DNA of 64,000 nucleotides from an uncultured Candidatus Saccharimonas sp. (GTDB lineage: Bacteria; Patescibacteriota; Saccharimonadia; Saccharimonadales; Saccharimonadaceae), in NCBI GenBank assembly GCA_964513425.1, contig CAZEME010000001.1, forward strand, positions 3,062 to 67,061. The letters are read 5' to 3'. Positions 1-27,432 of the stretch are shown here, piece by piece. Both the position numbers and the translations under genes were made by a program. Below the pieces are notes generated by a model, which was not told the origin of the DNA, searched no databases, and saw only the letters and a program-made list of their open reading frames with translations. The stretch's first letter is position 1. Each line of letters begins with the position of its first letter.

Positions 1-2
1 AC

Positions 3-224
3 CGCAAGTCTGCAGAAATAATACAGCAAATTGTTGGCTTTGGAGTCGAAAAGCACGATGACCTAGTCGATGCAGTTTCAATGGGCTTAAACTACATTCA
101 AAGTAATGTTAGGTGGCAAATACTTGCAGAATATGGTGGATTCAGGTTCAGCGACGACCCTACGGGCACGAACCATGGTGAATTTACGGTTACGGGGGTT
201 AAATATCTGGATGAATTAGATTAA
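3..224 (+). CDS. phage terminase large subunit, C-terminal fragment (5' end outside window)
   Basis: Frame-3 translation is RKSAEIIQQIVGFGVEKHDDLVDAVSMGLNYIQSN...YLDELD, with stop TAA at 222-224. The EKHDDLVDAVSM block resembles the conserved hDDxvDA motif near the C terminus of terminase large subunits. It is absent from the ORF track because no start lies in the window. Confidence 0.5.
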   Translation, partial: RKSAEIIQQIVGFGVEKHDDLVDAVSMGLNYIQSNVRWQILAEYGGFRFSDDPTGTNHGEFTVTGVKYLDELD

Positions 225-233
225 AAAAATTAA

Positions 234-806
234 TTATTTATATTTAAGACTATATAAATCTTGAATAGACATACTTTTTCGAAGAAGCTCATCTTCTTCA
301 AGTCGTTCAAACATAAGTTCTCTTGATGTTGACACATTTGGCCAATCATCTGCCCATAAAACACCATCGAATTCTTTGGCTCCTTGTTTGTTGAGAATCC
401 CAGATACAATCTTAAATAATTTTTCAATTCTCTTGAGTGTCGGCTCAGTTAATATTTGGTATGACTTATTATTCAGATAAATCTTATTAATATGAGCAAC
501 TTTTTCGTGCCTAAAATTAATTAAATCTTTATATTCCTTTGATAAAGTATTTTTTATATAATCTGCATCACTTAAGTCAGATATAACCCTGGTTAACCTT
601 AGCGCACCATTCTGACTATCGAATATATAATTAGTAATTAATATTAGTTTAGCTGTCATGCAATCGAGAACAAGTTGAAAAAATGGGTCATATGCACTAT
701 CTATCATGTCTATTTTCTCAAATATTTGTCGGTATGCTTTAATAATTTCGTTTCCTTTTGCAATCTCTTTACAAAAGAATTCCCAATTTTGCTTATCAAT
801 AGTCAT
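234..806 (-). CDS. HEPN-domain protein, AbiU2-like, last gene of the Type I R-M operon
   Basis: 190-aa ORF starting 2 nt after the hsdR stop. It carries an Rx4-6H HEPN signature, FRHEKVAH (R99..H105, nt 492-512). It looks predominantly helical and has a length typical of AbiU2-type HEPN proteins. Confidence 0.55.
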   Translation of the reverse strand: MTIDKQNWEFFCKEIAKGNEIIKAYRQIFEKIDMIDSAYDPFFQLVLDCMTAKLILITNYIFDSQNGALRLTRVISDLSDADYIKNTLSKEYKDLINFRHEKVAHINKIYLNNKSYQILTEPTLKRIEKLFKIVSGILNKQGAKEFDGVLWADDWPNVSTSRELMFERLEEDELLRKSMSIQDLYSLKYK

Positions 807-808
807 TT

Positions 809-3800
809 TTATATCTTTCTACTAGAAATATCAAAAAACTTATTAAAGAATGCTGTTAACTTATCCAAGACTGTTTCTCGTTTCTTGCCTCGGCTTTGAT
901 CAGCTGAAAAACGTGACACAGGTGGCAAAATCTTAGTAATTGCAGTTCCGCTAGTTTGGACTCCTCCATCACGAAACGCACTATCAATAAAGCTATAAGT
1001 CTCATCACGATCAAGATTTTCATCAGCAATAATCTTATTTAATTCCTCAATCTTTTTTGTATCAACAAATGACTGCCAATTATCATCAACGACTGAACCT
1101 ACATCTAATGAATTTATGAATTGCTCAATAAGATCTTTCTTGTTACGAAGTTCAACACTTGAATCTATGGCTTTATTAATATCAACTAACAATTCTTTAT
1201 CCTCTTGATTACCTGCATGATATTTGCGAATTAGTTCAAGAATGTAATCAATATTTATTTCAACTTGTTTGATTAATTCCATTTCAAAGACGATATCATC
1301 ATTAATATTTTCCTTGTCGCTATCTGCAATATCCCTAAACTCATCATAGAAATTAATATACATACTATGATAATCTTGAACATCACGTTCGGATAAAATT
1401 TCTTTTCCAAGAAAATCATCAAATGTAGTCAATATATTTCTAACCTTTAATATTGCACCGTAAAGATTAATGAATTCTTTCTTATTTTGTTCGCCAATAA
1501 TTTGCTCATTTACTGGGAATCGTGAAAGTAATTCGTTCACAAGATCAGTGTATCCACGAATTTGCTTACCTTCAGATTCATAACCCTCATAATATTCTTT
1601 GAAAGATTTCAGCAATACAATACCGCTTGCTTCTTTATCGCCAAATAACGCAATTGAATCATTTGTTGCTTTTTCAAGATTACGGAAAGTCACAATGTTG
1701 CCGAATGTCTTAATAGAATTAAGTATTCGATTTGTACGTGAGTATGCTTGTAATAAACCGTGCATTCGCAAATTCTTATCAACCCATAATGTGTTCAATG
1801 TTGTTGCATCAAAACCAGTCAAAAACATATTAACAACTATCAACAAATCGATCTCGCGATTCTTCATTCGTAATGAAACATCTTTATAGTAATTCTGAAA
1901 TTTATCAGATGATGTATCATAATTCGTAGTAAACATTTTGTTATAGTCTTTCATCGCAGAATCTAGAAAATCTCGCGAACTAGCATCAAGACCATCAGTG
2001 TTCTCAGAATTCTCATCAATTACGCCATCGAGTTCATCATCAACTTCGTTTGCACTATAACTAAAAATTGTTGCTACCTTTAAACGTGCAAGTTCTGGTA
2101 TCTCTGATTGTTGCTTCTTAAACTCTGCATAATATAACTTTGCTACTTCGATTGAACTAACTGCAAATATTGAATTAAAACCACTGAGTCGAATCTTTTC
2201 TTTTACTTCTTCAACAGCCGATCGGTCACGTGCCGAAGCTGCTTCAAATACATTAGCTAGTTTGGTAAATGCGTACGGTTTGCTGTTTCGCTTTGTCTTC
2301 TGATCAAAATGCTCACGAATATACTTAACTACGTTTGATATACGTTCAGGTGCAGCCAGAGCTTTTTCGCGGTCAATATCCCTAACCTGAGAATCATCAA
2401 CATCATCAGCCTCTCTAACAGTACGAACGTAATCGATTCGAAATGGCAAAACATTTTTATCCGTAATGGCATCAACGATAGTATAAGTGTGGAGCTTTTC
2501 ACCGAATGCTTGTTCGGTTGTTTTTATGTCCACTCTTCCGCCGCTAGATGAGTTCTTAGCAAATATCGGTGTACCCGTAAAACCAAATAAATGATAATTC
2601 TTAAAGTTTTTTGTTATTGCATGATGCATATCACCAAATTGTGAACGATGACATTCGTCAAAAATAATTGCTATGTGACTATCAAATGCCTTATGCCCTT
2701 CGTTCGATCGAATGAACTTATCAAGTTTTTGAATAGTGGTAATAATAATTCTAGCGTTTGCATCTTCAAGTTGTCTTTTTAGTTTGGCAGTGCTCGTATT
2801 GCTATTTGCAGCGCCTTTTTCAAACTTGTCATATTCTTTCATTGTTTGATAATCGAGATCTTTGCGATCAACAACAAACAAAACCTTATCTATATAAGAT
2901 AATTTACTAGCAATTTGGGCAGTCTTAAAACTTGTTAATGTCTTACCTGACCCTGTTGTATGCCAAATATAGCCACCAGCATCAATTGTTCCAAGTTTTT
3001 TATAATTTGTTGAGATCTCTATTCGATTTAGTATTCTTTCTGTTGCAACTATTTGATATGGTCGCATTGCGAGTAATAATCGGTCGCTAGTGAATACGCA
3101 ATACTTCGTTAGAATACTTAAAATTGTATGCTTTGCAAAAAATGTCTGCCCAAAATCCATTAGATCAAATATAGGTTTATTGCTTGAATCAGCCCACCAA
3201 CTTGAAAACTCAAAACTATTGCTTGTCTTTTTACTTCGCTTACTGTTATTGTCATTTGATTCTTTGATGTGCTGAAAGCGTGTAGTGTTGCTGTAGTATT
3301 TTGTGTAAGTTCCGTTACTAATTACAAACAACTGAACATATTCGAACAAACCGCTATCTGCCCAAAAACTATCTCGCTGATAACGATTTATCTGGTTAAA
3401 TGCCTCTTGTAGTGCGATGCCTCGTCGTTTCAATTCAACGTGCACAAGTGGTAGACCATTTACTAGAATCGTCACATCATAACGATTAGATCGCAAACCA
3501 TCAATTTCATATTGGTTAATGACTTGAAGACTATTATTATGAATATTCGTTTTATCGATAAGGTAAATATTCTTAACTTCGCCATTATCACGAGTTAGTA
3601 ATTGAACGTGATCTTCTTGTATCTTTGCTGTCTTTTCTTCTATGCCTTCATTTTTGTTAGCTAATTTTGTGACAAAAAATTGTTCCCATTCTATATCACT
3701 GAATTTATAATCATTTAATTTTTCAAGTTGTGTGCGTAAATTTGTAATTAAATCTGATTCGCTTGAAATTGATAAATAATCGTATGCCTGAGATTCAAGT

Positions 3801-3925
3801 AACTTTATAAAAGCTTGTTCTAGATCGGCTTCGCTCTGATAATTAGTCGCTCTAGTTATTGCAGGAGTAAATTCACCCACGACCGTGCTGTTAGTATTTT
3901 CAGCCACCATGCTGTATTTATTCAT
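809..3925 (-). CDS. hsdR: Type I restriction enzyme R subunit
   Basis: 1038 aa. It has the Walker A motif HTTGSGKTLTS, the DEAD/DEAH-type box IIFDECHRSQ and an N-terminal nuclease region. Its start overlaps the hsdS stop by 4 nt. Confidence 0.95.
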   Translation of the reverse strand: MNKYSMVAENTNSTVVGEFTPAITRATNYQSEADLEQAFIKLLESQAYDYLSISSESDLITNLRTQLEKLNDYKFSDIEWEQFFVTKLANKNEGIEEKTAKIQEDHVQLLTRDNGEVKNIYLIDKTNIHNNSLQVINQYEIDGLRSNRYDVTILVNGLPLVHVELKRRGIALQEAFNQINRYQRDSFWADSGLFEYVQLFVISNGTYTKYYSNTTRFQHIKESNDNNSKRSKKTSNSFEFSSWWADSSNKPIFDLMDFGQTFFAKHTILSILTKYCVFTSDRLLLAMRPYQIVATERILNRIEISTNYKKLGTIDAGGYIWHTTGSGKTLTSFKTAQIASKLSYIDKVLFVVDRKDLDYQTMKEYDKFEKGAANSNTSTAKLKRQLEDANARIIITTIQKLDKFIRSNEGHKAFDSHIAIIFDECHRSQFGDMHHAITKNFKNYHLFGFTGTPIFAKNSSSGGRVDIKTTEQAFGEKLHTYTIVDAITDKNVLPFRIDYVRTVREADDVDDSQVRDIDREKALAAPERISNVVKYIREHFDQKTKRNSKPYAFTKLANVFEAASARDRSAVEEVKEKIRLSGFNSIFAVSSIEVAKLYYAEFKKQQSEIPELARLKVATIFSYSANEVDDELDGVIDENSENTDGLDASSRDFLDSAMKDYNKMFTTNYDTSSDKFQNYYKDVSLRMKNREIDLLIVVNMFLTGFDATTLNTLWVDKNLRMHGLLQAYSRTNRILNSIKTFGNIVTFRNLEKATNDSIALFGDKEASGIVLLKSFKEYYEGYESEGKQIRGYTDLVNELLSRFPVNEQIIGEQNKKEFINLYGAILKVRNILTTFDDFLGKEILSERDVQDYHSMYINFYDEFRDIADSDKENINDDIVFEMELIKQVEINIDYILELIRKYHAGNQEDKELLVDINKAIDSSVELRNKKDLIEQFINSLDVGSVVDDNWQSFVDTKKIEELNKIIADENLDRDETYSFIDSAFRDGGVQTSGTAITKILPPVSRFSADQSRGKKRETVLDKLTAFFNKFFDISSRKI

Positions 3926-4515
3926 ACTGATAGCTCCTGGAACGTAAGTAATTTAGTTCGATAGTATTCGTATTGTTGATGACGAGCAGAAATTTCAGCT
4001 GGTAAGCCTTCGGCAATACTATTGATAAGTATTTCAAATTTATCAAGAATATTAACAATACGATTTTGCTCAGAGATAGAAGGAACAGGTATTTTTATTC
4101 TCGCCATATCTTTTGCCGAAACATCGATAACCTTCGTTCCTTTTGCATATTTACGCTTTTCTTTAAAGAACATTAATGTCTGTGTGTAGTATGCAAAATA
4201 TTTTCCAGTAATCTTTTCAGGTTTAAACACAGTTGCATGACCTCCGGTTACGATCTCTCCATCACCACACCATACAACAGCCTTACCAACATCCTCAAGG
4301 TTTTCACTAGTATTAGTGATTATCACATCACCGCTATTCGCCTTTGTGAGTTTTTTTGCTAGTTCTGGCGATACAAATGACTTAGTTTTATTGGTGAATG
4401 TGCCATAATACGTATAAATTTGACCATAATGAATACAAGGGAAACCACTTTCTGTAAAATCTTTTTTCTGCAAACCATTAGCTCTCATAAATACTCCTGT
4501 ATCTCCCAAATTCAA
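3922..4515 (-). CDS. hsdS: Type I R-M specificity subunit, C-terminal half (TRD2 plus distal conserved helix)
   Basis: 197 aa. It begins LNLGDTG (a TRD start motif shared with the upstream half) and ends ISARHQQYEYYRTKLLTF (conserved HsdS helix). The only start is TTG at 4513-4515, overlapping the upstream stop. It is out of frame with the upstream half because of the (AG)10 tract. Confidence 0.85.
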   Translation of the reverse strand: MNLGDTGVFMRANGLQKKDFTESGFPCIHYGQIYTYYGTFTNKTKSFVSPELAKKLTKANSGDVIITNTSENLEDVGKAVVWCGDGEIVTGGHATVFKPEKITGKYFAYYTQTLMFFKEKRKYAKGTKVIDVSAKDMARIKIPVPSISEQNRIVNILDKFEILINSIAEGLPAEISARHQQYEYYRTKLLTFQELSV

Positions 4516-5114
4516 CCATTTAACGTCTCTCTCTCTCTCTCTCTCTGCGAGTCTTGTTGTTCAAACGTCAACAACTGATTTCTATAAAAATCGTATTGCT
4601 TCCTTCTCGCCTCCAGCTCCGCTGACAGCTCCGCTTCTAATTGTGTGAACTTATCGAGAATATTTGCAACCTCTTTTTGAACTTCTAGTGGCGGAATTGG
4701 AATCTGTATACTGCCGATAACTTCCGTTGGTAAGTGTGCCGGTATTGCATCTGTAGCTTGTGATTGAATAAAACCCTGTTTATCTTTTAATACGTAAAAA
4801 AGATATTTATTATCTAAGTTCTCGTTTGGTTTAATGCAGTAACAGACATCATTTGCCCAAAATGCTTCCTTAATATAATTGACGAATCCAGCTGTACCAT
4901 ATTTCACCACAGTAATTGTGTTTGCTGATTGGTTAAACTTACTATAATAACCCATCGGCGTCACGCCACCGCTATATACTGGGTATATACCATCTGACGT
5001 AAGTTCACTTTTCGTGACGCGCCTCCCCCTCTTAATTGAAGCTGTGTCACCGAGATTTAAAAATATTACTCCCTCTGGGCAGGATTTCTGGATCAGCTCA
5101 CCAATCTTGCTCAT
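4512..5114 (-). CDS. hsdS: Type I R-M specificity subunit, N-terminal half (TRD1 plus central conserved helix)
   Basis: 200 aa. It contains FLNLGDTASIKRG at the TRD start and LEARRKQYDFYRNQLLTF as the conserved helix. The C terminus QRERERETLNG-stop is encoded by the dinucleotide repeat. Confidence 0.85.
   Translation of the reverse strand: MSKIGELIQKSCPEGVIFLNLGDTASIKRGRRVTKSELTSDGIYPVYSGGVTPMGYYSKFNQSANTITVVKYGTAGFVNYIKEAFWANDVCYCIKPNENLDNKYLFYVLKDKQGFIQSQATDAIPAHLPTEVIGSIQIPIPPLEVQKEVANILDKFTQLEAELSAELEARRKQYDFYRNQLLTFEQQDSQRERERETLNG
4526..4546. repeat. simple sequence repeat (TC)10T on the + strand, (AG)10 on the coding strand, at the hsdS half-gene junction
   Basis: Read directly as tctctctctctctctctctct at 4526-4546. 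It is the only long dinucleotide tract I noticed in the window. Confidence 0.95.
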
Positions 5115-5569
5115 TACAATTTGATCTTCCCATTGGCAGCTGCGCCAATACCTACAATATTCCCAACTTCTGCCTTAACTAAGCTATCAATAGAAACTTT
5201 TGAAGTAAAGTTAAAATTAAATAATGATTTTATAGCCTTTTGAGGTTCTTCGCCTTGTTCAATTCCTTCTATCACATCTATGCCATTCGCTGTTAAATGC
5301 AAGCCGAGTAACAACAGACCGCCCATAATTTCTTTATTATTCTTTTTTGCGATAAGACCTTTTTCTAGCAAATAATTGAAGGCATTATATAACAAGATAT
5401 CATCTTTACTTATTGAATGCAGGATATCTTTAAGCCACGACTGCGTATCAACTTTCATATTTGATACTGCAGCAAATACTATGCCAGTTTGTCCCAACTT
5501 AGTAGGATCATCTAGCTGTATAACATATAGAGATAAGAGGATTTTGCCAGCTGTTTGCTTTACGCTCAT
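5114..5569 (-). CDS. hypothetical protein embedded between hsdM and hsdS (possible winged-helix fold)
   Basis: 151-aa ORF. Its start overlaps the hsdM stop by 4 nt and its stop overlaps the hsdS start by 1 nt. The segment LYNAFNYLLEKGLIAKK...GLHLTANGIDVIEGIE resembles wHTH recognition-helix and wing regions. I recognise no catalytic motif. Confidence 0.6.
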   Translation of the reverse strand: MSVKQTAGKILLSLYVIQLDDPTKLGQTGIVFAAVSNMKVDTQSWLKDILHSISKDDILLYNAFNYLLEKGLIAKKNNKEIMGGLLLLGLHLTANGIDVIEGIEQGEEPQKAIKSLFNFNFTSKVSIDSLVKAEVGNIVGIGAAANGKIKL

Positions 5570-7137
5570 TTTTTATCCTCTATTTCAGCAACAATCGCAT
5601 CAATCTGAGTACGAAGTTCACTCTGTCTCTTAACAATATTTGCTATGTTTGCATTCAGCTCCGTAATATCAGTGGCGACTGTCATATCAAGCTCGTCAAT
5701 ATAACTACTAACTGCAATATTATAATCATTTTTACTAATTTCATCGTTTGTCACTAATCTAGCAAAATGATCAATGTCTCGACGACTAATAAATGCCTCT
5801 AATATTTTATCTTGATTGACTTGACTGAGCTTATTCTTATTGCCGCCACGAACAAATTCAGCCGATGCATTAATAAATAAAGTTGAGTTGTCTTTTTTGC
5901 TCTTTTTCAAGACTACAATACACGTTGAGATAGTCGTCCCAAAGAATAAGTCAGGCGGTAATTGAATAACTGCATCAACAAAGTTGTTGTCTATTAAGTA
6001 CTTACGAATTTTCGCTTCTGCACCGCCACGATACAGCACTCCAGGGAATTCAACAATTGCAGCAATTCCGCTGGTTGATAACCAACTTAGAATATGCATT
6101 GTAAATGCTAGATCGGCTTTACTCTTTGGGGCTAGTACACCTGCAGGACTGAACCGAGGATCATTTATTAATAATGGATTTGCGTCGCCTTCCCAATTAA
6201 TCGAATATGGTGGATTTGAAACAATTGCATCAAATGGTTCATCGTCCCAATGTTGTGGGTCAATTAATGTATCACCATGAGCTATGTTAAACTTCTCATA
6301 ATTAATGTCATGCAAAAACATATTTATACGTGCAAGGTTGTAGGTTGTTAAGTTAATTTCTTGACCGAAAAATCCTTGACGAACATTATCTTTTCCAAGC
6401 ACTTTAGCAAACTTTAACAGTAAAGATCCTGAGCCACACGCAGGGTCATATACCTTATTAACCTGCGTCTTGCCAACAACTGTAATACGAGCGAGTAATT
6501 CGCTTACTTCTTGTGGGGTAAAGAATTCACCACCAGATTTTCCTGCACTACTGGCATACATACCCATCAAATACTCATACGTATCACCGAAAGCATCAAT
6601 TGTATTGTCTGTGTAATTACCAAGTTTCAAATCACCAATTACGTCCATTAATTTAACAAGTCGCTCGTTACGTTTTGCAACTGTTTGTCCTAGCTTGTTG
6701 CTATTAACATCTAAATCATCAAATAATCCCTTAATATCGTCTTCACTGTCTGCGCCTTTTGCAGAACCTTCAATATTTCGGAATACTCCAGATAAAACTT
6801 CATTCAAATTTTCTTCACTTTTTGCTCGTTTGCGAACATTTTCAAAAAGTTCACTTGGTAATATATAAAAGCCTTTTTCCTTAACGGTATCGTCACGACC
6901 AAATTCTGCAGCATCATCACTAAGGTTTTTATAATCAAAATCTCTAGGTGTGTTTGAATCTTTCAATTCTTCTGAATTGATATAGTTTGTTAGATTTTCC
7001 GAAATGAACCTATAGAATAGTATCCCTAAAACGTATTGTTTAAAATCCCAACCGTCTACAGACCCTCGCAGATCATTTGCAATTTTCCAAATAGTACTGT
7101 GTAGATGCGTACGCTCTTGCTCTTTTTTATTATCCAT
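5566..7137 (-). CDS. hsdM: Type I R-M N6-adenine DNA methyltransferase subunit
   Basis: It has the AdoMet motif VYDPACGSGSLL, the catalytic motif SNPPYS and an N-terminal HsdM_N-like region (IWKIANDLRG). The ORF is open to 7203. ATG at 7137 is preferred because a TATAAT box (7147-7152) lies inside the extension. Confidence 0.93.
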   Translation of the reverse strand: MDNKKEQERTHLHSTIWKIANDLRGSVDGWDFKQYVLGILFYRFISENLTNYINSEELKDSNTPRDFDYKNLSDDAAEFGRDDTVKEKGFYILPSELFENVRKRAKSEENLNEVLSGVFRNIEGSAKGADSEDDIKGLFDDLDVNSNKLGQTVAKRNERLVKLMDVIGDLKLGNYTDNTIDAFGDTYEYLMGMYASSAGKSGGEFFTPQEVSELLARITVVGKTQVNKVYDPACGSGSLLLKFAKVLGKDNVRQGFFGQEINLTTYNLARINMFLHDINYEKFNIAHGDTLIDPQHWDDEPFDAIVSNPPYSINWEGDANPLLINDPRFSPAGVLAPKSKADLAFTMHILSWLSTSGIAAIVEFPGVLYRGGAEAKIRKYLIDNNFVDAVIQLPPDLFFGTTISTCIVVLKKSKKDNSTLFINASAEFVRGGNKNKLSQVNQDKILEAFISRRDIDHFARLVTNDEISKNDYNIAVSSYIDELDMTVATDITELNANIANIVKRQSELRTQIDAIVAEIEDKK

Positions 7138-7225
7138 ATATAAAGTATTATAACCTAAAAATAGGTATAAATCAGCCATGAAATTACTAGACTTTACTGA
7201 CAATTGGCGATAATGTTGTCCTATA

Positions 7226-8488
7226 ATGAAAACAGATTTAACAGATATAAAATATTGCCTGTATGCTCGAAAATCGAGCGAGCAAGATGAACGTCAAGCA
7301 ATGAGCATTGACTCACAAATCAAAGAAATGACCAACATGGCGAACCGTGAGGGGCTACAAGTCACAGAAGTCAAGCAAGAGAGTCATTCGGCCAAACAAT
7401 CTGGGCAAAGGCCTGTCTTTAGCGAATTGCTGACAGATTTACGGAATGATAAATTTCAGGGCATATTAACTTGGGCGCCCGACCGGCTATCACGAAACGC
7501 TGGCGATTTGGGATCATTAGTGGACTTAATGGATTCTAATAAATTACTGCATATTCGAACATTTGGGCAAAGTTTCAGTAATACACCGAATGAAAAGTTT
7601 CTGTTAATGATTTTGTGTTCGCAAGCCAAACTCGAAAACGACAATCGAGGTGTAAATGTAAAACGAGGAATCCGTGCTAAATGTGAAATGGGATGGCGAC
7701 CATGTATGCCTCCGCTTGGATACTTTACTCGAGCTGCAACTGGTGGCGCCCGGGATGTTATTGTTGACGAAGAACGAGCACCATATATTAAAAAGATGTT
7801 CGAGATGTCTGCAAATGGTAAAGGTGGCAGACATATTAAGCAATGGCTAATGGACAATAATGTAAAATCTAGAGGCGGAAAGAATATACCACTTAGTATG
7901 ATTTACAGGATGTTAAATAGTCCATTTTATTATGGCGAGTTTGAATATCCTTCAGGATCGGGCAAATGGTATAAAGGCAATCATCAACCGATAATCGATA
8001 AAGACTTATTCTTGAAAGTCAAAGAACAGTTAAAGGTTCCAATAAAATCTAAATGGGGCTCAAAAGAATTTCCCTTCAGGAACTTTCTGAAATGTTATAG
8101 TTGTGGTGCTTCAATTGTTGGCGAAGAACATACTCGGCATTATGCGAATGGTCGAAATCCTCGATTTGCTTATTATCATTGTTCGCGCCAAGTCGATCAT
8201 GATTGCAAAGAACCATACATATCTGAAAAAGGCATTGTTGAAGAATTGTGTAGCATGCGAAATGAATTAATCACAGATTTACGAGAAGTTGAGCCAGGTT
8301 TGCGTGATGCAATCGAGAAATTTACTAAAATGATTAGTGTTACCGACGAAGATTATAGCAAACAAGAAATGATCGGCGGATATATTAAATACGTATTGCA
8401 TGAAGGGAGTTTGTTTGAGAAAACAAGACTAATTCGAAATATAAATATTAATCTTATGCTGCACAATAAAATACTAATTAAACTATAA
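7226..8488 (+). CDS. large serine recombinase (resolvase/invertase N-domain, recombinase domain and zinc ribbon)
   Basis: 420 aa. The N-terminal YARKSSEQDERQAMSIDSQ is a serine-recombinase catalytic region. GWRPCMPPLGY...ERAPYIKKMF is recombinase-domain-like. The Cys cluster is CYSCGAS...YYHCSRQVDHDC. It is divergent from hsdM. Confidence 0.88.
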   Translation: MKTDLTDIKYCLYARKSSEQDERQAMSIDSQIKEMTNMANREGLQVTEVKQESHSAKQSGQRPVFSELLTDLRNDKFQGILTWAPDRLSRNAGDLGSLVDLMDSNKLLHIRTFGQSFSNTPNEKFLLMILCSQAKLENDNRGVNVKRGIRAKCEMGWRPCMPPLGYFTRAATGGARDVIVDEERAPYIKKMFEMSANGKGGRHIKQWLMDNNVKSRGGKNIPLSMIYRMLNSPFYYGEFEYPSGSGKWYKGNHQPIIDKDLFLKVKEQLKVPIKSKWGSKEFPFRNFLKCYSCGASIVGEEHTRHYANGRNPRFAYYHCSRQVDHDCKEPYISEKGIVEELCSMRNELITDLREVEPGLRDAIEKFTKMISVTDEDYSKQEMIGGYIKYVLHEGSLFEKTRLIRNININLMLHNKILIKL

Positions 8489-8497
8489 TCATATGAT

Positions 8498-9898
8498 ATG
8501 GACAATAATCAAAAAGAAGATAACCAACTTAGCCAAAGAAATATATTAAAAGAATGCTTCACATTATTTGGTAACTCCTATTATGATTCTTTTATCCCTG
8601 GGATAACTGACCTTGTAAAACTTTCCAGGGACCGTCAATATTATAAGAATCCGGCAAAACATTTTGGCCTACAAATAGGGTTAATGGATGCTATTATAAA
8701 GATGGACGAAACCGTTTCCTTAGGCAAACAAGAAGCAAGAAAAAATAACAATAGCGAAGATATAATAATTCAACGAAGACGCAATAGAGTAATTTCATTA
8801 GCATATCGACAAATTTGTGATGGAATTGCTTGGCGCAGTGTTGGCTATTCAAGATTTTATATTCGCATAATGTCTCAGGCACGATCACCTGGATCTGCTC
8901 ATGGAAAAGAAATTGGTCGAAAAAAAGAGATGATTTATGCAACAAATGTCGTACGTAATGGAAGCTATGTTTTAATACACGATGCAACAAATATACTTAG
9001 GGTTGGCGACCTGAGCGCACTAAAAAACATACCTGGAGTACCTTATCTGTCAGAGATAAAAAATAAGAAAGGTATTGCTACACCAAAAGACATAGACGAA
9101 AGATTAGAAAATGGCACATCTACAACTAAACAGGAAGATAGATTATGGCAGGCACAAATAATGCTTAGTTCTAAGAAATGGTATATGAAAGATGTGATTA
9201 TACCTGTTACAAGATTAGTGGCCAAGAAGAAGGATTTCTTAGTAAGTGCCGGCGCTGTCTTGAAACAAGCTGTGAATAAAGGCGTTTACGGAAAAATGTT
9301 AAGCAATTATATGTACATGGAGGCATTTGATATACGTAAAATACTAAATAGTTTTAGTGATACTATATCTTTTCAAAAACTATTAAATACTCTGCCAAGC
9401 CCTCAAAAAGAATTACTTTCAATTCATTCAAACTATGATACCATTGAGGCTCTTTTAGATAATGAGGTGATGCGTTCCGTCCCGCCATACACTATATTCC
9501 CTTTCTCAGCTGAAGTGGTGGCTAAGCTTATTACTGGGCAGCTTGTTTTTAGGACTATGATCTTAAAAAAAGAATTAGAAAATGAATTTCTAAAGTTTGG
9601 CTATGAGTTGATTATTGATGAAAAAGCGCTTGAAGAAGTATCCCAAGACGAAGATAGTGTGGTCTTTTTGTCCAGTAGAGTGCTATTTCCAGATAAAGAT
9701 CCTGACTCGTTTGTGCATATTAGGCACAATAATAGTGGCTTTATGTACCCTATGCAAATGTTCTTTGCTACGATTGCATATGAATTTTTAAGTGTTGAAT
9801 ATATTATTTCGATAGCTGAAGCTGTAAGGGCGACAGCAAAACCAGGCGAAGTAGGAATGTTTTACCCAGAAATAGAAGACAGCTATCGCTGGCTATAA
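8498..9898 (+). CDS. hypothetical protein with a PD-(D/E)xK-like nuclease motif
   Basis: 466-aa ORF starting 9 nt after the recombinase stop. The candidate motif is VLIHD..LRVGD171L-x14-E186-I-K188. I recognise no other family. Confidence 0.55.
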   Translation: MDNNQKEDNQLSQRNILKECFTLFGNSYYDSFIPGITDLVKLSRDRQYYKNPAKHFGLQIGLMDAIIKMDETVSLGKQEARKNNNSEDIIIQRRRNRVISLAYRQICDGIAWRSVGYSRFYIRIMSQARSPGSAHGKEIGRKKEMIYATNVVRNGSYVLIHDATNILRVGDLSALKNIPGVPYLSEIKNKKGIATPKDIDERLENGTSTTKQEDRLWQAQIMLSSKKWYMKDVIIPVTRLVAKKKDFLVSAGAVLKQAVNKGVYGKMLSNYMYMEAFDIRKILNSFSDTISFQKLLNTLPSPQKELLSIHSNYDTIEALLDNEVMRSVPPYTIFPFSAEVVAKLITGQLVFRTMILKKELENEFLKFGYELIIDEKALEEVSQDEDSVVFLSSRVLFPDKDPDSFVHIRHNNSGFMYPMQMFFATIAYEFLSVEYIISIAEAVRATAKPGEVGMFYPEIEDSYRWL

Positions 9899-10066: not shown

Positions 10067-10141
10067 TGGCTGGGGATGAGGGATTCGAACCCCCGAATGC
10101 CAGGACCAGAACCTGGTGCCTTACCGCTTGGCCAATCCCCA
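10067..10141 (-). tRNA. tRNA-Gln (anticodon CUG), CCA encoded
   Basis: The reverse complement folds as a cloverleaf. The acceptor is UGGGGAU/AUCCCCA, the anticodon loop is UU-CUG-GU and the T-loop is GGGGGUUCGAAUCCCUC. It is very similar to the E. coli tRNA-Gln scaffold. Confidence 0.93.
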
Positions 10142-27219: not shown

Positions 27220-27284
27220 AAAAATCCTTTCTTTGATTATTGTTCGACCAAATTGTTAATGTTCTAGACAGTGGCGAAGGAAAC

Positions 27285-27388
27285 AAAAAAGTCTTTGGTT
27301 CTCGCACTGCCAAAGACTAAGATCGAAAAATGTTTTTATACACTGTCCTCGGTAGCAAATTAAGTGTTTTCACAGCTACTGTCTTTGG
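27285..27388 (-). promoter_or_regulatory. rplJ leader with alternative antiterminator/terminator helices (L10-leader-like attenuator)
   Basis: The minus-strand order is CCAAAGAC (27388-27381), GUCUUUGG (27317-27310), CCAAAGAC (27298-27291), then U6. The middle segment can pair with either flank. The downstream pairing makes a hairpin plus U-tract. Confidence 0.5.
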
Positions 27389-27403
27389 TAATGTCTATCA
27401 AAA

Positions 27404-27432
27404 ATTATAGCAATCCTACCACTTATTGTCAA
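27404..27432 (-). promoter_or_regulatory. consensus sigma70-type promoter for rplJL
   Basis: TTGACA (27432-27427), a 17-nt spacer, then TATAAT (27409-27404) on the minus strand. Confidence 0.6.

Follow-up and report, generated by a model that had tools for sequence, protein, structure and literature searches.

The window, by which we mean the whole 64,000-nt stretch of DNA that was analysed, carries near its start a Type I restriction-modification (R-M) operon that ends in a short gene, ORF190, and is bordered by phage-type genes. The features of this region are as follows (coordinates, strand, description):

3..224, plus strand: 3' portion of the gene for a phage terminase large subunit, read towards ORF190 (phrog_38, E = 2.4e-5)
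234..806, minus strand: ORF190, 190 aa, assigned below as a probable divergent HEPN_AbiU2-family protein and a predicted metal-independent endoRNase
492..512, minus strand: codons of R99-H-E-K-V-A-H105, the putative Rx5H catalytic motif
663..665, minus strand: codon of D48, an acidic residue invariant in 25/25 sequences and located in predicted helix 2
807..820, minus strand: junction of hsdR and ORF190, read directly from the sequence, with a purine-rich AGAAAGA (820..814), the hsdR stop codon TAA (811..809) and a 2-nt spacer (808..807)
809..3925, minus strand: hsdR, 1038 aa, EcoR124-like (HSDR_N, SWI2_SNF2/ResIII, T1R_D3-like and EcoR124_C, all E < 1e-40)
3922..4515, minus strand: distal half of hsdS with the second target-recognition domain (Methylase_S, E = 5e-13)
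4526..4546, no strand assigned: (AG)10.5/(TC) repeat that parts the hsdS halves (TRF score 42, 100% matches)
4512..5114, minus strand: proximal half of hsdS with the first target-recognition domain (Methylase_S, E = 4e-28)
5114..5569, minus strand: orf151, between hsdM and hsdS and overlapping both by a few nt
5566..7203, minus strand: hsdM (N6_Mtase, E = 6.5e-111; HsdM_N, E = 2e-20)
7226..8488, plus strand: large serine recombinase/integrase gene, divergent from hsdM (Resolvase, Recombinase and Zn_ribbon_recom; phrog_95, E = 1e-64)
8498..9898, plus strand: orf466, an ORF of 466 aa that starts 9 nt past the serine integrase gene
10070..10141, minus strand: tRNA gene near the R-M/HEPN cassette

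All three components of a Type I R-M system, encoded by hsdM, hsdS and hsdR, gave strong Pfam matches, and the genes of the operon stand in the order hsdM-orf151-hsdS'-hsdS''-hsdR-ORF190; orf151 had no match in Pfam, NCBIfam or PADLOC. The hsdS gene is frameshifted at the (AG)10.5 repeat, where the loss of 2 nt or the gain of 4 nt would restore a single HsdS of 396/398 aa with both target-recognition domains. This arrangement of the sequence suggests slipped-strand phase variation of the Type I specificity; alternatively, the split may reflect a frameshift, or an assembly or population variant. An earlier sequence-only reading of this DNA had described ORF190 as the last gene of an hsdM-orf151-hsdS-hsdR operon, starting 2 nt past the hsdR stop codon. 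Direct reading of the letters bears out the start: the TAA of hsdR occupies 811..809, the spacer AA 808..807 and the ATG of ORF190 806..804, so that the gap is exactly 2 nt. The terminal position and the tight coupling likewise stand, whereas the hsdS of that description is in fact two half-genes. The AGAAAGA sequence lies inside the 3' end of hsdR, 8–14 nt upstream of the ORF190 start. No terminator-like site was detected on the minus strand of positions 1..7600, and promoter-like sites showed no excess (28 versus 30.5 expected from shuffled sequence). We propose that ORF190 would be carried on one transcript with the EcoR124-like Type I R-M genes, and that its translation is probably coupled to that of hsdR by termination-reinitiation.

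We searched 5.8 billion proteins for relatives of ORF190 and obtained five (E = 9.6e-104 to 3.4e-24). The junction of terminase, HEPN and hsdR genes recurs in a syntenic contig of another sample (L008), which is 89% identical to the window at the nucleotide level and keeps the order terminase, ORF190, hsdR. Comparison of ORF190 with its ortholog in this contig gave dN/dS = 0.27, which indicates purifying selection. For the flanking gene fragments, the same comparison gave dN/dS of about 0.02–0.03 over short alignments of 53–59 codons; by this measure, ORF190 appears less constrained than the genes on either side. Judged by its sequence, ORF190 is a real gene.

Because the terminase 3' end and the serine integrase gene bound the R-M/HEPN cassette, the cassette seems to be carried on a prophage-like element, of which it is probably cargo. 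Its GC content (34.7%) is close to that of the rest of the window (36.3%). The neighbouring orf466, for which Pfam, NCBIfam and PADLOC gave no match, may also belong to the cargo of this element. As candidates for a conserved partner or antitoxin of ORF190, both orf151 and orf466 were rejected, being absent from every other HEPN locus. The window also contains a ribosomal protein L10 leader (27276..27406, minus strand; Rfam RF00557, 73.5 bits) and five tRNA genes; such features are usual on a chromosome and fit with Saccharibacteria core genome in the remainder of the window. In the same direction, a SecY-like protein encoded in the window shows up to 82% identity to proteins from MAGs (metagenome-assembled genomes) of Candidatus Saccharimonas, so that the genome appears to be Saccharimonas-like.

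The borders of the cassette bear on one alternative account of ORF190, in which it would act autonomously, as a toxin or addiction module, to stabilise its mobile element without any functional tie to restriction, and would lie beside hsdR merely through the accumulation of defence and selfish genes in an island. The terminase fragment and the serine integrase that flank the cassette would fit this account, as would the serine recombinase found beside the HEPN gene in a second locus (L024). Against it, no antitoxin candidate, whether a nucleotidyltransferase (MNT) or a small upstream ORF, was found in the window. We regard this explanation as unlikely, and the neighbourhoods of the relatives, described below, weigh on both sides of it.

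To place ORF190 by sequence, we compared it with Pfam, in which HEPN_AbiU2 (PF18734) was the top match at 19.9 bits (E = 5.4e-4), below the gathering cut-off of 26.8 bits for this family. The alignment is collinear, with residues 14–142 of ORF190 matched to model positions 14–169 of 193. Among 25 relatives, HEPN_AbiU2 was the sole recurrent Pfam family, matched at E <= 0.01 by 14, and four relatives scored at or above the cut-off (P0017, 35.2 bits; P0029, 33.1 bits; P0012, 27.5 bits; P0030, 26.8 bits). Profile searches link ORF190 to each of these four, to P0017 at E = 7.5e-16, to P0012 at E = 3.2e-24 and to both P0029 and P0030 at about E = 1.6e-46, and ORF190 is thus a transitive member of HEPN_AbiU2 through relatives that reach the cut-off. 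PADLOC, NCBIfam and PHROGs yielded nothing useful for ORF190, and attempts to bridge it to named canonical AbiU2 proteins, with the alignment query and with P0017, led only to the query or to members of this small clade. A match of the ORF190 profile to Cas2 among PDB sequences (E = 0.003, 49 residues) was set aside as spurious, since it is short, weak and otherwise unsupported.

The motif FRHEKVAH, in which the sequence-only reading had singled out R99 and H105, is present (R99 codon 512..510, H105 codon 494..492), and its R/H dyad is conserved. HEPN domains are defined by Rx4-6H with a polar N, D or H directly after the R (PMC3710099), and ORF190 has this pattern as R99-H100-x4-H105. Across the 25 relatives (20–88% identity), only D48 and H105 are invariant columns; R99 is retained in 24 of 25 and replaced by K in one, and all 25 have H, D or N at residue 100. 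Some Rx4-6H was found in 22.5% of shuffles of ORF190, so that the motif alone is weak evidence, and the weight of the R99/H105 motif comes from its conservation across relatives.

An AlphaFold model of ORF190 obtained with the 25-sequence alignment (pLDDT 88.5, pTM 0.83) contains helices at residues 3–31, 40–62 (with D48), 78–104 (with R99) and 121–145, an insert at 63–77, and two further C-terminal helices at 158–189. The R99–H105 motif spans the end of helix 78–104 and the start of the loop 105–120. The predicted topology is that of a HEPN domain: the model agrees with the published HEPN fold, and D48, R99 and H105 are modelled at the active-site positions given in the literature. A Foldseek search with this confident model returned nothing significant from PDB or BFVD (best E 1.4 and 0.32, respectively); the solved HEPN structures 3o10, 4nqf and 3jrt appeared in PDB at E = 2.6–5 and TM 0.3–0.4, amid unrelated helical bundles. 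A first, shallow model (pLDDT 64.6) also gave nothing significant in Foldseek.

The AbiU2-type HEPN identity claimed by the sequence-only reading is accordingly supported by the sequence, though not by the fold search. On the profile side, AbiU2 is the top Pfam family and four relatives reach the cut-off, but ORF190 itself falls short of it; on the structural side, the confident model has a HEPN-like topology, but Foldseek gave no significant HEPN match. Our assessment is that ORF190 is very probably a divergent AbiU2-family HEPN protein, on the basis of profile, motif and predicted topology rather than of a fold search. The shortfall in Pfam score, the frequency of Rx4-6H in shuffled sequences and the lack of a significant structural match would also be compatible with ORF190 being an unrelated helical protein, in which the Pfam match and the R..H spacing are coincidental. 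However, a single Pfam family is matched collinearly by 14 of the 25 relatives, four of them at or above its cut-off, the motif residues coincide with the invariant columns, and the predicted topology puts these residues where HEPN descriptions do; coincidence therefore seems to us very improbable.

We further analyzed the distribution of the ORF190 clade. When 1.84 billion cluster representatives were searched exhaustively by profile, only 24 representatives were recovered, for which reason we consider the clade genuine but rare. The relatives with a named host belong to metagenome-assembled genomes (MAGs) of Saccharibacteria (Saccharimonadales) and Berkelbacteria. A tblastn search of plasmid and phage collections gave no ORF190 match, a scan of IMG/VR gave no relative, and a metagenome scan gave only one contig, arranged as L003. 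Two broad alignments, A2 and A3, proved unsuitable for scanning loci, being too divergent.

Restriction genes adjoin about 10 of the 13 relatives with readable contexts, or 8 of 11 when the hsdR-linked copies are merged into one lineage; the linkage to R-M genes on which the sequence-only reading depended is therefore found in the relatives. The closest ones, P0001 (L008) and P0005 (L005–L007), follow hsdR at distances of 3 and 9 nt, and the HsdR of L005 is 73% identical to that of the window. P0002 lies after an Eco57I/MmeI-type methyltransferase gene and a PLD-SNF2 helicase-nuclease gene, P0003 lies 3 nt after a gene with a TnsA-like endonuclease domain, and P0004 lies after a gene with a TaqI_C specificity domain. 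P0006 and P0029 head Type III mod-res operons; P0006 overlaps the gene behind it by 4 nt, and P0029 is followed by a gap of 5 nt. P0017 belongs to a dnaK-dnaJ island, where it converges with the gene of an Mrr-type endonuclease, and a relative from Berkelbacteria shares its island with genes for a MamI endonuclease, a methyltransferase and a serine recombinase. Three relatives have no R-M neighbour: P0007, flanked by dnaK and dnaJ, and P0011 and P0014, which have other neighbours. The neighbouring restriction types vary (Types I, II, IIG-like, III and Mrr-type/IV), with no fixed partner.

Some of these neighbourhoods have features of their own. In L017 (670..11294), L018 and L012/L013, all from Saccharimonadales MAGs, genes are inserted between dnaK and dnaJ; the inserts encode a 241-aa unknown protein, an AbiU2-like HEPN protein, an Mrr-type endonuclease and a Bro-N protein, and on another contig the HEPN gene is the sole insert at this site. 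Between dnaK and dnaJ, these genomes may have a hotspot at which defence genes insert. P0005 (L005, 5152..5850) keeps the N-terminal half of the HEPN protein, including the R..H residues, and differs past about residue 108, where it has an unrelated, hydrophobic and possibly membrane-spanning tail. A simple frameshift was ruled out as the origin of this C-terminus, since residues 109–190 of ORF190 found no match in the other frames of L005. The same locus has a GmrSD/DUF262 gene (214..2013) just upstream of hsdR and ends in the AbiU2-like HEPN gene, an order that echoes the pairing of AbiU1 and AbiU2 with hsdR placed between them; lactococcal AbiU1 is assigned to DUF262. A zeta-toxin gene follows the Type III res gene in the HEPN-containing island of L011 (13402..14127), and L024 (1248..2813) encodes a LexA-DNA-binding/S24-peptidase domain fused to an N6/N4 methyltransferase, beside a MamI endonuclease gene.

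These contexts return us to the addiction module. The presence of relatives in the possible dnaK-dnaJ hotspot speaks for it, as does the variety of R-M types among the partners, which makes a single specific partner protein less likely. On the other hand, same-strand tight coupling to a restriction or methylase gene occurs in 8 of 11 independent lineages and exceeds what loose co-residence in an island would give.

Of the roles considered, we judge it reasonably likely that ORF190 is a small stand-alone HEPN_AbiU2 RNase that backs up restriction through dormancy or suicide and is portable with restriction cassettes. The protein is predicted to be a metal-independent endoribonuclease, the active site of which would combine D48 of helix 2 with three residues where core helix 3 ends, R99, H100 and H105. 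Restriction would act as the first layer of defence; upon failed or inhibited restriction, the ORF190 RNase would act and bring about dormancy or suicide. The sequences show the gene structure of ORF190, its family placement, the conservation of its residues and the linkage in its neighbourhoods, whereas we infer the RNase activity, the toxicity, the trigger, the silencing and the defence role. No antitoxin or other silencing partner for it was identifiable, and in the literature searched, neither RNase activity nor a defence phenotype is shown for any AbiU2-type protein.

Since its partners vary across restriction types, we prefer a portable accessory toxin to a dedicated HsdR-bound subunit, and the same variety argues weakly against a specific interaction with HsdR. 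Direct gating of ORF190 in the manner of PrrC, where the nuclease is kept latent by binding to the R-M complex until an anti-restriction factor sets it free, accordingly appears doubtful. In one form of this idea, which we hold to be decidedly unlikely, ORF190 would be a sensor-less minimal PrrC, made in a fixed ratio with HsdR by way of translational coupling, silenced by the R-M complex and freed by a phage anti-restriction protein. If that were true, the cassette would amount to 'guarded restriction' borne by a phage in episymbiotic Saccharibacteria, and its specificity could also switch via the (AG)n repeat in hsdS.

Another possibility is that ORF190 is a non-toxic modulator: as an RNA-binding or regulatory HEPN protein, it would adjust the activity or expression of the neighbouring nuclease. 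According to the part of PMC13064643 that recounts Dai 2001, AbiUii was dispensable for resistance and lowered the activity of AbiUi, so that the two together had less antiphage activity. Moreover, certain HEPN domains, such as MtlR, are non-catalytic binders (PMC3710099), and a location straight after nuclease or helicase subunits recurs among the relatives of ORF190. Nevertheless, non-catalytic HEPN domains usually lack Rx4-6H (PMC3710099), whereas conservation in this family is highest at the R, the H and the Asp of helix 2, and a modulator role is in our view distinctly improbable. The back-up RNase remains our preferred account of ORF190.

This preferred account has clear precedents. In Table 1 of Anantharaman et al. 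2013, AbiU2 is entered as a HEPN family with an active motif that occurs in 'R-M operons', and the same study linked at least 16 HEPN clades to R-M and proposed a multi-pronged defence like that of PrrC-EcoprrI (PMC3710099). Makarova et al. 2013 described toxins, mostly HEPN proteins, embedded in immunity loci without antitoxins, and interpreted them as a coupling of immunity and suicide (PMC3632139). The view of the sequence-only reading that the combination is undescribed consequently falls, as AbiU2 HEPN genes in R-M operons were already tabulated in 2013; the two-layer idea is the standard published interpretation, and the locus is therefore not a new system.

The closest known counterparts are the AbiU2-type HEPN proteins of R-M operons (PF18734), with which ORF190 shares the Pfam family by profile, the Rx4-6H motif, a small stand-alone form and a position in or beside R-M operons. 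It differs from them in that its clade is very divergent and rare, its own score lies below the Pfam cut-off and its model has the extra C-terminal helices at 158–189. The PrrC/EcoprrI system of Type IC, the paradigm of restriction with a back-up suicide RNase (PMC3710099, PMC3632139), likewise places a HEPN-superfamily RNase in a Type I hsd locus with an EcoR124-like HsdR. However, PrrC belongs to another HEPN clade and has an N-terminal ABC-ATPase sensor, whereas no ATPase domain was found in the 190 aa of ORF190; prrC lies within the hsd neighbourhood of EcoprrI, whereas ORF190 closes the operon, after hsdR. In the lactococcal AbiU system, AbiUii, the founding AbiU2 HEPN protein, is encoded next to a nuclease-like partner, as is ORF190. 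That partner, AbiUi, is DUF262/ParB-like, whereas the genes within 1–10 kb of the window gave no DUF262/GmrSD match; in L005, a gene of this AbiU1-like partner family stands two genes upstream. HEPN domains of the DUF4145 type are fused to Type I restriction subunits (PMC3632139) and resemble ORF190 in being tied to the R component, but ORF190 is a separate gene of a different HEPN family, and no DUF4145 match was found for it. HEPN-MNT toxin-antitoxin systems also have a small HEPN protein with Rx4-6H; there is no nucleotidyltransferase antitoxin gene beside ORF190, the neighbours of which are hsdR and the convergent terminase gene.

The ORF190 locus is thus a fresh example of a known arrangement and not a new kind of defence, and it brings no new principle, because the association of HEPN proteins with R-M has been in the literature since 2012–2013. 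The novelty of the locus is small and lies in a very divergent and rare clade, which we rate as restricted to Patescibacteria and which is absent from PADLOC, in the very tight coupling to hsdR and in the location on a phage-like element. To our knowledge, the defence biology of Saccharibacteria (CPR) is almost unstudied, and in the literature searched there is no experimental test of an R-M-linked HEPN protein of the AbiU2 type. The locus provides a clean, tightly coupled case of a predicted HEPN toxin gene in a restriction operon of these bacteria, and with a protein of 190 aa, obvious catalytic mutants (R99A, H105A and D48A) and a compact Type I partner, it would lend itself well to testing the hypothesis that immunity is coupled to suicide.
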